53,083 nucleotides of DNA. Origin: a virus. Both the position numbers and the translations under genes were made by a program. Below are positions 23,997 through 41,962 of this stretch, one piece after another. The notes beneath the pieces were generated by a model that saw only the letters and a list, made by a program, of their open reading frames with translations, ran no database searches and had not been told where the DNA came from. Numbering within the stretch: the stretch's first letter is position 1; each line of letters opens with the position of its first letter. Location: IMG/VR virus record IMGVR_UViG_3300029258_001854; one strand, given 5' to 3'.

Positions 23997-24001
23997 TAGG
24001 G

Positions 24002-24058
24002 GGTTCCGTCGGCAAATACCCCCTCTAGTGCAGGTCGTACTAATTTGTCGGCGGAACC
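24002..24058 (+). promoter_or_regulatory. Structured 5' leader: 14-bp helix with two G.U pairs
   Basis: GGTTCCGTCGGCAA (24002-24015) pairs with TTGTCGGCGGAACC (24045-24058). The wobble pairs work only for the plus-strand RNA. Confidence 0.5.
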
Positions 24059-24077
24059 AACCTAAAGGTGAATGTGA

Positions 24078-24410
24078 ATGACGAGAATTATGCATCTGAT
24101 TCAAGAGATGGTTTGCGAATGTGATGAGATTGCTAGTGATGATCCTTGCATTCAATGCCAGCTGGCTGAAGAACTTGTTTCTGCTACTGATGATCTTAAA
24201 AAGGTAAGTGAACAGTGTGCAGCCCTCAAGAGGGAGAATGTGCAAGTTCACAAAACTTACAAACGCATCCAAGAAGTTCATGAGATGCATATTGATGCTC
24301 TTAACAGATATTGGCACCGTGGTCACAAAGACTGCCCTTGTGAAGATGGGAAGTTTCCTGCTAGGTGTGAATCAATCTGGCTCAAGACTAGGTTTTCTGA
24401 AACTTTATGA
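24078..24410 (+). CDS. Hypothetical Cys-rich/coiled-coil protein
   Basis: 110 aa with start cassette AAAGGTGAATGTGAATG. Confidence 0.65.
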   Translation: MTRIMHLIQEMVCECDEIASDDPCIQCQLAEELVSATDDLKKVSEQCAALKRENVQVHKTYKRIQEVHEMHIDALNRYWHRGHKDCPCEDGKFPARCESIWLKTRFSETL

Positions 24411-24595
24411 CTACACAAGCGCAAAAGTATCGTAACAACCTCATAAGTGCTATAGGTACTGTTATGAGGGAGTGTCCTGATTTGACTTTCCAGCAAATCA
24501 TCAAATCAGTCTTTGATGGGAAGAGCATTCCTGCTGATGACAAAGATGCATATGATCAAATCATTCGCTGGATGATTAATCATGGGGACTCTTAG
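24407..24595 (+). CDS. Hypothetical small protein
   Basis: 62 aa. ATGA overlap upstream. Its last 10 nt overlap the tRNA 5' end. Confidence 0.55.
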   Translation: MTTQAQKYRNNLISAIGTVMRECPDLTFQQIIKSVFDGKSIPADDKDAYDQIIRWMINHGDS

Positions 24596-24662
24596 CTCAG
24601 TTGGTTAGAGCGCCCGGCTCATAACCGGATGGTCCTGGGTTCAAGTCCCAGAGAGTCCACCA
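24586..24662 (+). tRNA. tRNA, anticodon CAT (elongator Met or Ile2-lysidine type), CCA encoded
   Basis: Hand-folded cloverleaf: acceptor GGACTCT/AGAGTCC, D GCTC/GAGC, anticodon loop CTCATAA, T CTGGG-TTCAAGT-CCCAG, A73, CCA. Confidence 0.85.
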
Positions 24663-24678
24663 CTTTACTTGGAGCAAA

Positions 24679-24873
24679 ATGAACTGCACAATATGTAATG
24701 AGTATGTGAATCCAAAACGAATTAAAATTGGCTATAAAACTTGTCTAAAATGCGGTCAGCATTTTGCTGAAAAAGAATCAGCAAGAAGGAAGAAATGCAT
24801 TGCTCCTGCATTCAACAAAGGTCCATACATGTATGTGACTGGTAAAAGTATGGCAAAGGATGTAGGCAAGTAA
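24679..24873 (+). CDS. TraR/DksA-like C4 zinc-finger protein (tentative)
   Basis: CTICNEYVNPKRIKIGYKTCLKCGQ. GGAG lies upstream. Confidence 0.5.
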   Translation: MNCTICNEYVNPKRIKIGYKTCLKCGQHFAEKESARRKKCIAPAFNKGPYMYVTGKSMAKDVGK

Positions 24874-24916
24874 AGCTCGCCCCTGCTGGCATACCGGGGT
24901 CTAAACTTGTATGCCA

Positions 24917-25018
24917 CTATATGGATACCCATTAGAACAAATACCGTGGATGCGGAGTGTTAATTGGGACAGGCGGTTTGTCCCCACTCATGCAACCGTC
25001 TAATGGGTATCCACATAG
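24917..25018 (+). ncRNA. Candidate stable RNA: 102-nt rod-like imperfect hairpin
   Basis: 24917-24936 pairs 19/20 with 24999-25018. Inner helices: TGC/GCA, GGAGTG/CACTC, GGGACA-7 nt-TGTCCC. Confidence 0.5.
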
Positions 25019-25161
25019 TATTTTATTGTTGAAGCATTATCAGGTGTATGGGCGTTGCAGGACGCTGCGACAGAGCAAGCGTGGCTCAGAGAAAATGGCC
25101 AACTCAAAACACGAGGGCTGCTTCTTAACTTTGGTGCGGTAGGTAACACCAGAGACTATGT

Positions 25162-25236
25162 GCCGATTTAGCTCAGAGGTAGAGCAGCTGATTTGTAATC
25201 AGCAGGTCGTCAGTTCGAATCTGACAGTCGGCTCCA
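25162..25236 (+). tRNA. tRNA-Thr (anticodon TGT), CCA encoded
   Basis: Acceptor GCCGATT/AGTCGGC, anticodon stem GCTGA/TCAGC, loop TTTGTAA, T GTCAG-TTCGAAT-CTGAC. Confidence 0.9.
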
Positions 25237-25256
25237 TTTAACAACAGGGGTGCAAT

Positions 25257-25364
25257 ATGCCTGGATCTGGAAAAGCAAAGCAGAAGAAGATGGCAAAGAA
25301 GAAGCGGCACAAGGAGTGCCTTGCCATCAAGCGCAAGAAGAAGGCTGAAAAGAAGGGGAAGTAG
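25257..25364 (+). CDS. Lys-rich micro-ORF (35 aa)
   Basis: MPGSGKAKQKKMAKKKRHKECLAIKRKKKAEKKGK. AGGGG lies upstream. The 3' end overlaps the next tRNA by 10 nt. Confidence 0.35.
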   Translation: MPGSGKAKQKKMAKKKRHKECLAIKRKKKAEKKGK

Positions 25365-25430
25365 CCCAACGGCAGAGGCAGGAGACTTAAAATCTCTACA
25401 GTGTGGGTTCGAATCCCACCTTCCCTACCA
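25355..25430 (+). tRNA. tRNA with anticodon TAA (Leu by anticodon) but a class I (5-nt) variable region, CCA encoded
   Basis: Exactly 76 nt with standard numbering. Acceptor GGGGAAG/CTTCCCT (G1.U72), loop CTTAAAA, variable ACAGT, T GTGGG-TTCGAAT-CCCAC, A73. Confidence 0.75.
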
Positions 25431-25448
25431 TTTTAATGAGGAATTTGA

Positions 25449-25592
25449 ATGATGCCTAGAATTGGTGATGATCTTACACTTGAGCCGCCTCTTGATCCTC
25501 CTGATGATGATGAAGTGTGCGATGATGAGTATGACTACTCAGATTATGAGTCAAAGGAAGACAATGCTGCGTACTGGGGTGACTGGGATTGA
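25449..25592 (+). CDS. Acidic micro-protein (47 aa)
   Basis: GAGGAATTTGAATG cassette. MMPRIGDDLTLEPPLDPPDDDEVCDDEYDYSDYESKEDNAAYWGDWD. Confidence 0.5.
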   Translation: MMPRIGDDLTLEPPLDPPDDDEVCDDEYDYSDYESKEDNAAYWGDWD

Positions 25593-25996
25593 CCTCTAAC
25601 ACTCTTTACATTCTCAGGGGTGTTCCTGGGTCTGGTAAGACCACTCTTGCCAACTTGATGACTATTGGATTCAATTCTGTGGACATTCATGCTGTGGCCT
25701 ATGCTGCTGATGATTACTTCACAGATGAGAATGGCAATTACAGGTTTGACAAGAAGCGTCTTGGCGAAGCTCATGATTGGTGCCAGGACAGAGTGCTCGC
25801 TGATATGAGAGCAAGGATTCCTGTCATCATTGTGCACAACACTTTCGTCCAGATTTGGGAGATGAAGCCGTATATGGATATGGCAGATGAGAGTGGTTAC
25901 ATTGTCAATGAGATTGTCTGTAAGGGGCGATGGATGAATCAGCATGGAGTCCCTGATGAAGTCATTATCAGTATGCAGAATCGTTGGGAAGATTGA
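25589..25996 (+). CDS. P-loop kinase-like ATPase (AAA_33/polynucleotide-kinase-like)
   Basis: TTG start with TTGA overlap. Walker A GVPGSGKTT. Short 135-aa kinase-sized fold. Confidence 0.65.
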   Translation: MTSNTLYILRGVPGSGKTTLANLMTIGFNSVDIHAVAYAADDYFTDENGNYRFDKKRLGEAHDWCQDRVLADMRARIPVIIVHNTFVQIWEMKPYMDMADESGYIVNEIVCKGRWMNQHGVPDEVIISMQNRWED

Positions 25997-26003
25997 TAAA
26001 TAA

Positions 26004-26080
26004 GCACCCGTAGCTCAGTTGGATAGAGCAGCTGCCTTCTAAGCAGCGGGTCGCAGGTTCGAGTCCTGCCGGGTGCGCCA
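26004..26080 (+). tRNA. tRNA-Arg (anticodon TCT), CCA encoded
   Basis: Acceptor GCACCCG/CGGGTGC, anticodon stem GCTGC/GCAGC, loop CTTCTAA, T GCAGG-TTCGAGT-CCTGC. Confidence 0.92.
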
Positions 26081-26125
26081 TCACCCAAACTTTAGGTTTT
26101 ATAACCCAAAAGAAAGGTGGAAAGC

Positions 26126-26356
26126 ATGAAGGTTTTCGAGGAAATCGGAAGGTTCTGGTCTGCTAAATCTTTGCTAGTTGGAAAGATTGGAGAACATGAA
26201 CACTGGAAAGTTTATAGTGAACTAGAGACTGGGAACATTATTGAGTATTACGAAGACGGGGAGTGCAAGAAGGAGTTGGTACTACCGTGGGAGCCAGAGC
26301 TATTGATTGCCATTGGCGAAGCGATCTGCGCTCTAGGGAAAACAAATAATGAATAA
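26126..26356 (+). CDS. Hypothetical small protein
   Basis: ATG at 26126 after AAAGGTGG. 76 aa. Confidence 0.55.
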   Translation: MKVFEEIGRFWSAKSLLVGKIGEHEHWKVYSELETGNIIEYYEDGECKKELVLPWEPELLIAIGEAICALGKTNNE

Positions 26357-26801
26357 GTCTAAAGAAGCAGAGGACCGCATTGAAACGCTCCAATCTGAAG
26401 TTGAAGAAAGAAAGCGCTTGTGGGTTGAAGCGATGGACGAGGCACAGACGCAGAAAGATCGCGCCGCTGCCGCCGAGGCCCGCGCCGCCGAGTTGGAGGA
26501 CGAGCTGCGCCGTCGCCAGGAGATCATCGACGACGCGCGCATTCGGATGGACAAGCTTGACCTCGCAGACCGGCTGGCGGAGGCGGCGAAACCCGCGATC
26601 AAGCAACTCTTTAGCTACGATCACGCACCCGGCGTCCGAGTGGCCGTCCCTCTCAAGGAGGCCCTCGCCGCCTACCACTCGGCGAAAGCTGTCGTGAACG
26701 ATCCGCACCCGGACACGGAGCGGCTGGACTGGCTCCTCCGTGTCTACCGTCTCGACCGTGAAGCAATCGACGCAGCGCGGGAGGGGAGTCGTGAGGATTA
26801 A
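26349..26801 (+). CDS. Hypothetical coiled-coil protein, strongly GC-rich gene
   Basis: 150 aa rich in A/R/E. Its composition contrasts sharply with flanking DNA. It lies between tRNA-Arg and tRNA-Ile. Confidence 0.6.
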   Translation: MNKSKEAEDRIETLQSEVEERKRLWVEAMDEAQTQKDRAAAAEARAAELEDELRRRQEIIDDARIRMDKLDLADRLAEAAKPAIKQLFSYDHAPGVRVAVPLKEALAAYHSAKAVVNDPHPDTERLDWLLRVYRLDREAIDAAREGSRED

Positions 26802-26819
26802 ACTGTTCTACTCGCCAGA

Positions 26820-26896
26820 GGGCCTGTAGCTCAACTGGTTAGAGCACACGTCTTATAAGCGTGCGGTTGTGGGTTCGAGTCCCACCAGGCCAACCA
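26820..26896 (+). tRNA. tRNA-Ile (anticodon TAT), CCA encoded, G1-A72 mismatch
   Basis: Acceptor GGGCCTG/CAGGCCA, D GCTC/GAGC, loop CTTATAA, T GTGGG-TTCGAGT-CCCAC. Confidence 0.85.
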
Positions 26897-26898
26897 TT

Positions 26899-27063
26899 AT
26901 GGGTAAAATAGTAATCTTCATAAGCATGGATGACCCACAAGAGAAGTGGGATGCTCTTTATGAGTATATCCGCAAATATGATATTGATGAAAGGGAGGTA
27001 GTTGATGATCTAGAATATGAAAATACAAACAAATTGAAGTTTTACTCAGAACCTGAAGATTGA
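26899..27063 (+). CDS. Hypothetical small acidic protein
   Basis: The ATG at 26899 lies just 3' of the tRNA. The longer tracked start would lie inside the tRNA. Confidence 0.5.
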   Translation: MGKIVIFISMDDPQEKWDALYEYIRKYDIDEREVVDDLEYENTNKLKFYSEPED

Positions 27064-27074
27064 AGGTAATGTAA

Positions 27075-27179
27075 ATGGAAGATGGTTACTGTGTAGTTTG
27101 TGGTGATTTTGATGAACTTGATTCGGAAAATTGCTGCCCAAACTGTGACCTAGATGAATTGGAAGAAGATGGCAATTAA
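27075..27179 (+). CDS. Zinc-ribbon micro-protein (34 aa)
   Basis: GAAGGTAATGTAAATG cassette. MEDGYCVVCGDFDELDSENCCPNCDLDELEEDGN. Confidence 0.45.
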   Translation: MEDGYCVVCGDFDELDSENCCPNCDLDELEEDGN

Positions 27180-27903
27180 AATCACTACAGTTGATGAGTC
27201 CATCAAAAGTCAAGGGCTAAAACTTCTTGTTTATGGCCTTTTGGGCACTGGTAAGACAGTTCTTGGAGCAACTCCTGCTAGTCAGGATAGCCCTGTGCTG
27301 TTTATCAATGCTGAAGGTGGTCTTTTGTCACTGAAAGATATGCCTTCTGAGAAGAAAAAGCATATTTCTGTGGCAACTGTGCGTGGTTTAGGTGATGTGG
27401 ATGAGATTTACAACACCCTTACCACCACAAAGGACTACAAATGGGTGGTACTTGACTCAATTTCTGAGATTGCTGAGGTTGTTCTAGCAGAACAGAAGAA
27501 GCAAGAAAGAGATGGGCGTGCCGCATACGGAAATCTGGCTGATATTATGAATGTCACGCTCAGATCTTTCCGTGATATTGAAGGCTACAATGTATACATG
27601 TCTGCAAAGATGACTCGTTATACAGACGAGATCACCAATCGCACCATGTATTGGCCTTTGATGCCTGGTAGGCAGCTTACCAATGGTATTGGGTACATTT
27701 TTGATGAGGTTTTTGCTCTAAGAGTGGAAACTGATCAGGAAGGTAACCAAACAAGATGGCTTCAGACGAGCAGAGATGTTCAATATGAAGCAAAAGACAG
27801 GTCTGGTAGACTAGATATGTTTGAAGAGCCTGACCTTAACCACATTGAAAATAAAATCAATGGAATTTCAGAGGAGAATGATAATGGCACGGCTTCCGCT
27901 TAA
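27169..27903 (+). CDS. RecA-fold AAA ATPase (AAA_24 / Sak4-like recombination protein)
   Basis: Walker A LLVYGLLGTGKT, Walker B WVVLDSISE. Adjacent to an SSB-like gene. Confidence 0.75.
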   Translation: MAIKITTVDESIKSQGLKLLVYGLLGTGKTVLGATPASQDSPVLFINAEGGLLSLKDMPSEKKKHISVATVRGLGDVDEIYNTLTTTKDYKWVVLDSISEIAEVVLAEQKKQERDGRAAYGNLADIMNVTLRSFRDIEGYNVYMSAKMTRYTDEITNRTMYWPLMPGRQLTNGIGYIFDEVFALRVETDQEGNQTRWLQTSRDVQYEAKDRSGRLDMFEEPDLNHIENKINGISEENDNGTASA

Positions 27904-41846: not shown

Positions 41847-41854
41847 AACAAAAA

Positions 41855-41927
41855 AGCCCCTCTAAGCGCCTAGATTCTTCCCCTAGCCTAGCCTATAGGC
41901 TCTGAGAAAAAGTCGCTTAGAGGGGCT
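41855..41927. terminator. Convergence-point terminator: perfect 14-bp stem with a 45-nt loop (repeat family copy 2)
   Basis: AGCCCCTCTAAGCG (41855-41868) pairs with CGCTTAGAGGGGCT (41914-41927). An A5 run on the 5' side gives a U-tract for minus-strand transcripts. Confidence 0.6.
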
Positions 41928-41962
41928 TCTGCACGGCCCTAGGTAGCGTTTTAGGGACGAAG

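Follow-up and report, generated by a model that had tools for sequence, protein, structure and literature searches.

The tRNA locus and its relatives

The window, by which we mean the whole stretch of DNA analysed, is a contig of 53,083 nt from a marine tailed phage that has not been cultured. The genes and features discussed here are collected in Table 1. No close relative was found among the GenBank phages, in which the top match to the DNA polymerase, from Vibrio phage VA-RY-3, has 50% identity. After the ligase gene, where the plus- and minus-strand gene blocks converge, there is an 18-nt, 94% inverted repeat (41854-41928), which from its sequence and position is likely to be a bidirectional terminator. 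Five tRNA genes are found between 24586 and 26896 on the plus strand, and the flanking ORFs are all on this strand too. The gap studied here is the 288 nt (24874-25161) between a zinc-ribbon ORF and tRNA-Thr; a scan of the gap for sigma-70 promoters and intrinsic terminators showed no promoter- or terminator-like site. The zinc-ribbon ORF had been called 'TraR-like' on the basis of the sequence alone, a label that is unconfirmed, as Pfam gives no zf-dskA_traR match. It is carried by a cassette that is missing from three relatives (L130, L141 and L297) and that is flanked by perfect 9-bp terminal inverted repeats (CTTTACTTG...CAAGTAAAG), placed precisely at the indel junctions.

Table 1. Positions of the genes, modules and structural parts discussed in the text (window coordinates unless a contig is named)
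Feature	Position	Strand	Remarks
Tail sheath, major capsid, portal and large terminase genes	left 16 kb	-	
tRNA-Met (CAT)	24586..24662	+	upstream neighbour
Optional cassette	24663..24875	+	with 64-aa CxxC...CxxC zinc-ribbon ORF (24679-24873)
Module A	24876..25022	+	147 nt
Leader of A, CTCGCCCCTGCT	24876..24887	+	12 nt; unpaired in MFE fold; identical in all relatives
Hairpin 1 of A, GGCATAC / GTATGCC	24888..24915	+	invariant 7-bp stem, 14-nt loop
Hairpin 2 of A (long rod)	24916..25019	+	39 pairs
Distal rod of hairpin 2	24937..24998	+	about 62-64 nt; only in window lineage and L130
Module B	25023..25161	+	139 nt
tRNA-Thr (TGT)	25162..25236	+	5' end always abutted by module A or B
Primase, helicase, DNA polymerase and ligase genes	28 to 42 kb	+	
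Module X (copies in relatives)	L297:1313-1450; L169:58-200; L141:1-58		

Relatives of the locus were gathered from ENA and Logan assemblies by exact-protein look-ups of the small genes next to it. Besides the sources of L130 and L297 given below, the samples with the phage are ENA ERZ27256770 and ERZ27256773, SRR6963311, JGI 3300017960 and 3300017991, and the TARA sample of ERZ2783009. The arrangement in the window, of which identical copies occur in several samples (L131-L134 and L162), is tRNA-Met, zinc-ribbon cassette, A, B and tRNA-Thr. In L130 (ENA ERZ25068665) a 145-nt copy of A begins 1 nt after the CCA of tRNA-Met and runs with 0 nt between into tRNA-Thr; B is absent. In L141 (TARA), which also has no B, a further module (X) is followed by a short form of A (83 nt) and, again after 0 nt, by tRNA-Thr. 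The 54.5-kb contig L297 (ENA ERZ26051151) has tRNA-Met, X (138 nt), the short form of A, B and tRNA-Thr with no spacers. Of the remaining two contigs, L170 (ENA ERZ23492300) begins within B and continues into tRNA-Thr, and L169 (Logan ERR299249) has tRNA-Met, X and the next ORF, without A, B or tRNA-Thr. The 5' boundary of A is always CTCGCCCC, behind three different upstream neighbours, and its 3' boundary is always ...CACATAGTATT (GTATT), ahead of either B or tRNA-Thr +1. The modules assort independently with identical ends, as A without B (L130 and L141), as A with B (the window and L297) or as X alone (L169). The gap, which had been presented as a single RNA, is instead made up of two independent modules. 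As either A or B always abuts tRNA-Thr, RNase P cleaving at this point would define the 3' terminus of whichever module lies upstream.

In L130 (1184-1919) and L297 (1763-2498), tRNA-Thr is directly followed by a cassette for a TylF-type SAM methyltransferase, which the window lacks. The region is a hotspot of indels, with the zinc-ribbon cassette, the TylF cassette, B and X each gained or lost exactly at module boundaries.

Fold of the modules

The long helix of A has the sequence originally described: CTATATGGATACCCATTAGA (24917-24936) pairs at 19 of 20 positions with TCTAATGGGTATCCACATAG (24999-25018). A repeat search showed that this inverted repeat (21 nt, 95% complementary) is the best long one in the window. 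The inner helices that had been proposed, GGAGTG/CACTC and GGGACA-(5-7-nt loop)-TGTCCC, are both present in the MFE fold. The two flanking hairpins exist as well, at coordinates 2-6 nt away from those first given: the first spans 24888-24915 and not 24893-24916, and the last is formed by 25129-25136 and 25147-25154 (CTTTGGTG/CACCAGAG) and not by 25134-25153. The whole gap folds with -107.8 kcal/mol and a z of -4.27 on the plus strand (-4.07 on the minus strand). Module A by itself has a z of -6.0, and the L130 copy a z of -6.5. As a yardstick we used spacers between tRNA genes of the same strand in 118 other phage contigs: the 103 gaps of 80-260 nt have a median z of -1.46, and only 2% of them fall below -5.5. 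Even by the standard of such spacers, the 5' half of the gap is thus unusual. Other phages also have inter-tRNA gaps, of 104-113 nt, with a z of -5 to -7.6 (L268:1320-1432, L262:588-691 and L236:13164-13276), and these are either tRNAs overlooked by ARAGORN or additional structured spacer RNAs.

In the loop of hairpin 1 GGGG and TAAACT are invariant, and variation is confined to the positions beside GGGG and to the final base. The CCCC of the leader (24880-24883) could form an H-type pseudoknot with the loop GGGG (24896-24899); both runs are invariant. Hairpin 2 is interrupted on its 5' side by bulges of 10 nt and 6 nt and by a lone unpaired U, and on its 3' side by a 1-nt bulge. Its lower stem (24916-24936 / 24999-25019), which holds one A.C mismatch and has an AU-rich base, is retained by all relatives. 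L141 and L297 have a 4-nt loop (centre ...CCAATTGTACAATGG...) in place of the distal rod, which to judge from these two sequences is dispensable. As both lack the upper 64 nt, the core of A is an 83-nt unit made up of the leader, hairpin 1 and a hairpin 2 of 17-20 bp. The '35-bp rod' of the original prediction is accordingly not the conserved unit: two relatives retain its lower 17 bp only, and the core adds the leader and hairpin 1. In L130 the Met-A-Thr precursor folds as three independent domains, namely two cloverleaves flanking the two hairpins of A. The two strands are close in energy: the plus strand leads by 1-2 kcal in the window and in L130, and the minus strand leads by 4 kcal for the short form. 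Fold energies do not separate the strands, and we infer the plus strand for the RNA from its context and from the substitutions involving G.U pairs described below.

Module B alone has a z of -0.8, with no significant overall fold, and the 'further structure' claimed for the 3' half is not above chance as a whole. The module has the conserved 3' hairpin given above and ends directly at tRNA-Thr +1. It also contains the motif TAACTTTG (25126-25133), 28 nt before tRNA-Thr and conserved in L170 and L297. The motif fits the Bacteroidota -7 promoter consensus, TAnnTTTG, and could be an internal promoter if the host belongs to the Bacteroidota. Module X, which follows tRNA-Met in relatives and is absent from the window, is non-coding and about 138 nt long; it has four hairpins, with variation in the loops and one compensatory pair (G-C to U-A).

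Conservation and distribution

Module A is 95% identical between the window and L130, where the median for 145-nt windows is 79%. This conservation is not specific to A, since the entire tRNA block is at least 95% identical. The most distant relative, L297, is more informative in that conserved islands alternate with diverged ORFs. It has 75% identity to the window over ORF62 and tRNA-Met and 69% over a 47-aa ORF and the ATPase, compared with 92% for the 5' part of A, 21/22 for the 3' part of A, 128/140 (91%) for B, 90% for tRNA-Leu and 95% for tRNA-Arg. The alternation speaks for constraint on A and B themselves and not for one recently exchanged block. Relatives conserve the element far better than the coding background (91-93% for the core of A and for B, 69-75% for the ORFs), as the proposal of a stable small RNA would have it. 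Between L141 and L297, X differs at 4/58 positions and the short form of A at 0/83.

RNAalifold gives one fold shared by the window and L130. The two copies of A differ at seven positions, five of them in loops or bulges and two at adjacent stem positions, and the chance of two or fewer of seven differences falling in paired positions is 0.07. Both stem changes in L130 preserve pairing on the plus strand (G.U to A-U and G-C to G.U). L141 has one compensatory change (A-U to G-C) beside the new loop and one pair-breaking change (C to A). With only three distinct A sequences, the covariation score was equalled by 177 of 500 shuffles.

The segment from tRNA-Thr to tRNA-Leu (25237-25354), which overlaps a 35-aa Lys-rich ORF (25257-25364), is also 92% identical to L297. 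Set against the 69-75% of real ORFs, this identity suggests a possible constraint on the RNA, either instead of or in addition to one on a peptide.

The shape had been said to match no recognised RNA family, and none was found: cmscan with Rfam 15, whose families include tmRNA, Y RNA-like, 6S, ribozymes and ROOL/GOLLD, at E values up to 10 returned only the five tRNAs in 24000-27500 and nothing in 24874-25161. ARAGORN finds no tRNA-like gene in the gap, which also has no GTTCRA or TTCRAWT motif. Blastn against GenBank phages, with a 1.1-kb query and with the gap alone (E up to 1), gave only tRNA matches or a 21-nt chance match, and plasmids gave chance matches only. In IMG/VR, a 14-mer from the arm had at least 119 chance matches; the two-arm pattern had five unrelated matches, one of which was a contig-end palindrome; and a 21-mer across the hairpin 1/hairpin 2 junction, a 21-mer of X and a 22-mer of B had none. 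An 18-mer matched 11 times in JGI metagenomes, the sole real match being the identical copy L162, and GTDB genomes gave three chance matches. The 118 other phage contigs, retrieved with a 22-mer of the tRNA-Thr anticodon arm, have no A, B or X. Searching IMG/VR with the zinc-ribbon ORF or the ATPase protein led only to distant phages with no tRNAs nearby, and the ATPase homologues at 54% identity or less (within L135-L147, L167 and L168) have no A. The family is very narrow: outside the identical copies and the relatives described here, the collections searched have no homologue.

Several identities were considered for A and rejected. A dispersed repeat, MITE or repetitive extragenic palindrome is not supported, as A is single-copy in the window and has no copies in unrelated contexts in IMG/VR, JGI metagenomes or GTDB. 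An intrinsic terminator was not found by the scan; the base of the stem is AU-rich, and a U-rich tail (TATTTTATTGTT) is confined to copies of A that have B behind them, and L130 and L141 lack it. An attP arm was rejected, with no integrase among the 35 ORFs scanned. Kinship with four RNase III-like two-hairpin elements at 18.4-22.1 kb was also rejected, as both architecture and sequence differ; when refolded, the four gave strong interrupted hairpins with no sequence in common with A, and the TATATTGA motif of these elements has a one-mismatch copy at 24918.

One further contig, L293 (1-1044), joins a Bacteroidota chromosome segment (with an xerC-like gene, hpf and a promoter, TAcaTTTG) to the phage at tRNA-Thr. 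The join is an exact 31-nt stretch common to a Bacteroidota tRNA-Thr (L295) and the phage tRNA-Thr, and 31 nt is presumably the word length of the assembler. For this reason L293 is probably an assembly chimera; there is also no integrase, and we reject a prophage or attP reading. The Bacteroidota-type sequence of the anticodon arm in the phage tRNA-Thr is a hint about the host.

Processing site, palindrome or small RNA

Open frames are present in the gap, and it could be supposed to encode a small protein, either from ORF 24957..25142 (61 aa, GTG start) or from an ORF of 30-49 aa. Natural indels break the longer frame: L130, which lacks 25023-25161, deletes its C-terminal two thirds, and L141 and L297, which lack 24937-24998, have its start region deleted. 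Pfam yields nothing for it at thresholds as loose as E = 1, no gene is called in the gap on any public contig carrying it, and the differences between the window and L297 copies of B include single-base insertions. The indels refute the coding reading, to which we give next to no credence, and the gap is non-coding as originally proposed. The main rival of the reading preferred below is a cis-acting processing and stability signal with no function in trans, in which the lower helix of A would be a site for the host RNase III in the 5' leader of tRNA-Thr. Cleavage would part the upstream mRNA or tRNA from tRNA-Thr and free the latter for RNase P, and a protective 3' hairpin could remain on the upstream RNA, as in the T7 early mRNAs. 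A resembles the known RNase III hairpins (the T7 early sites R0.3-R1.3 and those of T4 tRNA maturation) in being a long near-perfect helix with internal loops between polycistronic units, with the helix proper as the only part to keep its length from one relative to another. The lower stem, paired at 19/20, is the sole part of the rod kept in all relatives, and the distal 64 nt are dispensable, as expected if helix length alone matters. A is found upstream of tRNA-Thr in all four contigs that have it (the window, L130, L141 and L297), both are lost together in L169, and in the window A lies at an mRNA/tRNA boundary. The same genome has the four strong interrupted, RNase III-like hairpins at 18.4-22.1 kb, and Escherichia coli RNase III is reported to take part in the maturation of T4-encoded tRNAs (review, PMC4810235). 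A helix of about two turns, as RNase III requires, is seen with 19/20 bp in the window and L130 and with about 17 bp plus a mismatch in L141 and L297; this short form is less than two helical turns. The known hairpins have no counterpart to the additional invariant leader and second hairpin of A, and a dsRNA site needs neither the leader nor the invariant loop bases of hairpin 1. In L130, moreover, A has a tRNA on either side, a setting in which RNase P and 3' trimming normally suffice. We regard an RNase III site without further function as possible but on balance unlikely; it is not mutually exclusive with a stable RNA, and both could hold.

The near equality of the two strands in folding raises the question of a DNA-level feature, that is, an imperfect palindrome for protein binding or recombination (cassette shuffling), or a neutral passenger beside tRNA-Thr. 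The short form is palindromic through its centre; the zinc-ribbon, TylF, B and X segments come and go exactly at module boundaries; and the zinc-ribbon cassette has its own 9-bp terminal inverted repeats. The leader and hairpin 1 are nevertheless invariant though not palindromic, the large bulges on the 5' side would make a poor cruciform, and the two stem changes in L130 pair only as plus-strand RNA, with a C.A mismatch resulting on the minus strand. A is not MITE-like, being single-copy in the window with no copy outside this phage lineage in the collections searched, and there is no integrase for which it could be an attP arm. The tRNA-level conservation of A in L297 argues against a neutral passenger. 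Taken together, we consider a DNA-level explanation rather improbable.

The explanation that we tentatively prefer, with a confidence that falls a little short of even, takes A and B, together with X in relatives, to be non-coding stretches of the tRNA-operon transcript, each behaving as a small gene of its own. The proposal of a stable small RNA is plausible and finds backing in the conservation and the boundaries of the modules, though not in covariation. By analogy with the stable RNAs of T4, A and B are probably small RNAs excised from this transcript. From the observed sequence, fold, boundaries, modular inheritance and tRNA-level conservation of A, we infer the following course for its transcription, processing and stability. 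A would be transcribed on the tRNA strand within the Met...Thr precursor and would fold independently into a short leader, the 7-bp hairpin and the long hairpin. In L130 and L141 the 3' end of A would result directly from cleavage by RNase P at tRNA-Thr +1; in the window an additional cut at the A/B junction would be needed. The 5' end would come from an endonuclease that cuts behind the upstream tRNA or mRNA. The long hairpin, 3 nt from the 3' end, would block 3' exonucleases, and an RNA of 145 nt (83 nt for the short form) would persist. Several points count against the RNA reading. In contrast to rnaC of T4, A has no T-arm or other tRNA-like part, and the cuts proposed for its 5' end and for the A/B junction lack an explanation. 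The perfectly palindromic centre of the short form (TTGTACAA) suggests palindrome evolution at the DNA level. The covariation score that shuffles equal, the near equality of the strands, the unspecific conservation in the L130 comparison and the narrowness of the family weigh on the same side.

That tRNA clusters of phages can hold extra stable RNAs, namely species 1 and 2 of T4, has been clear since the 1970s. The T4 layout is tRNA-Arg, 1 nt, rnaD (species 2, 119 nt), 6 nt, rnaC (species 1, 139 nt), and the modules tRNA-Met, X, A, B and tRNA-Thr of L297 are packed flush in the same way. The precedent of position that had been drawn from T4 thus applies, with A set flush against tRNA genes as rnaC and rnaD are. 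Like A and B, the T4 RNAs are non-tRNA, non-coding and 80-150 nt long, lie in a tRNA cluster on the tRNA strand, and have no promoter or terminator of their own. In each pair one fold is strong and one is weak (z of -4.6 for rnaC and -0.8 for rnaD; -6 for A and -0.8 for B), and rnaC and rnaD are likewise without an Rfam family. The resemblance does not extend to sequence, as blastn of A and B against rnaC and rnaD gave only chance words of 6-7 nt. There are further differences: rnaC ends in a tRNA-like T-arm and an acceptor-like stem, neither of which is present in A or B; the T4 RNAs are located 3' of their tRNA and A and B 5' of tRNA-Thr; and the T4 RNAs are seen to accumulate by northern blot, whereas A and B are predictions from sequence. 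The T4 RNAs build up late in infection, and what they do is still unknown (PMC9697503). A second comparison is offered by the ncRNAs of PhiKZ, which are UTR-derived, have two stem-loops, are about 100 and 180 nt long and have been detected experimentally (PMC8545117). These share with A the two stem-loops and are released by processing of a longer transcript with no promoter of their own; they come from mRNA UTRs and A comes from a tRNA cluster, and the likeness drawn here is one of architecture and mode of release.

It is also conceivable, although quite improbable in our view, that A, B and X are trans-acting small RNAs with host targets of their own, for example as a decoy or antisense RNA against a defence or RNA-processing factor. 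The invariant single-stranded leader CUCGCCCCUGCU and the likewise invariant GGGG...UAAACU hairpin loop of A would then be the recognition surface. The CCCC-loop-CGGGGAUAAAC of L130 resembles what we take to be the 3' half of type I-E CRISPR repeats. That A might mimic a CRISPR repeat is speculative, and this idea is weakened by the versions in the window and L141 (GGGGUCUAAAC and GGGGCUUAAAC).

If A, B and X are read as RNA modules of the tRNA transcript, as we prefer, they form a new and narrow family of a known kind, that of the non-tRNA RNAs embedded in phage tRNA clusters. The immediate value is limited, as the family is narrow and the phages are uncultured. The lineage is nonetheless a natural experiment, in which three non-coding modules that are conserved like tRNAs come and go as whole units whose boundaries are exact, and the clean 64-nt deletion of the hairpin tip that separates the long and short forms of A defines the minimal units. 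Should the modules prove to be stable RNAs, 'tRNA-cluster passenger RNAs' would be a general feature of phages and not an oddity of T4.
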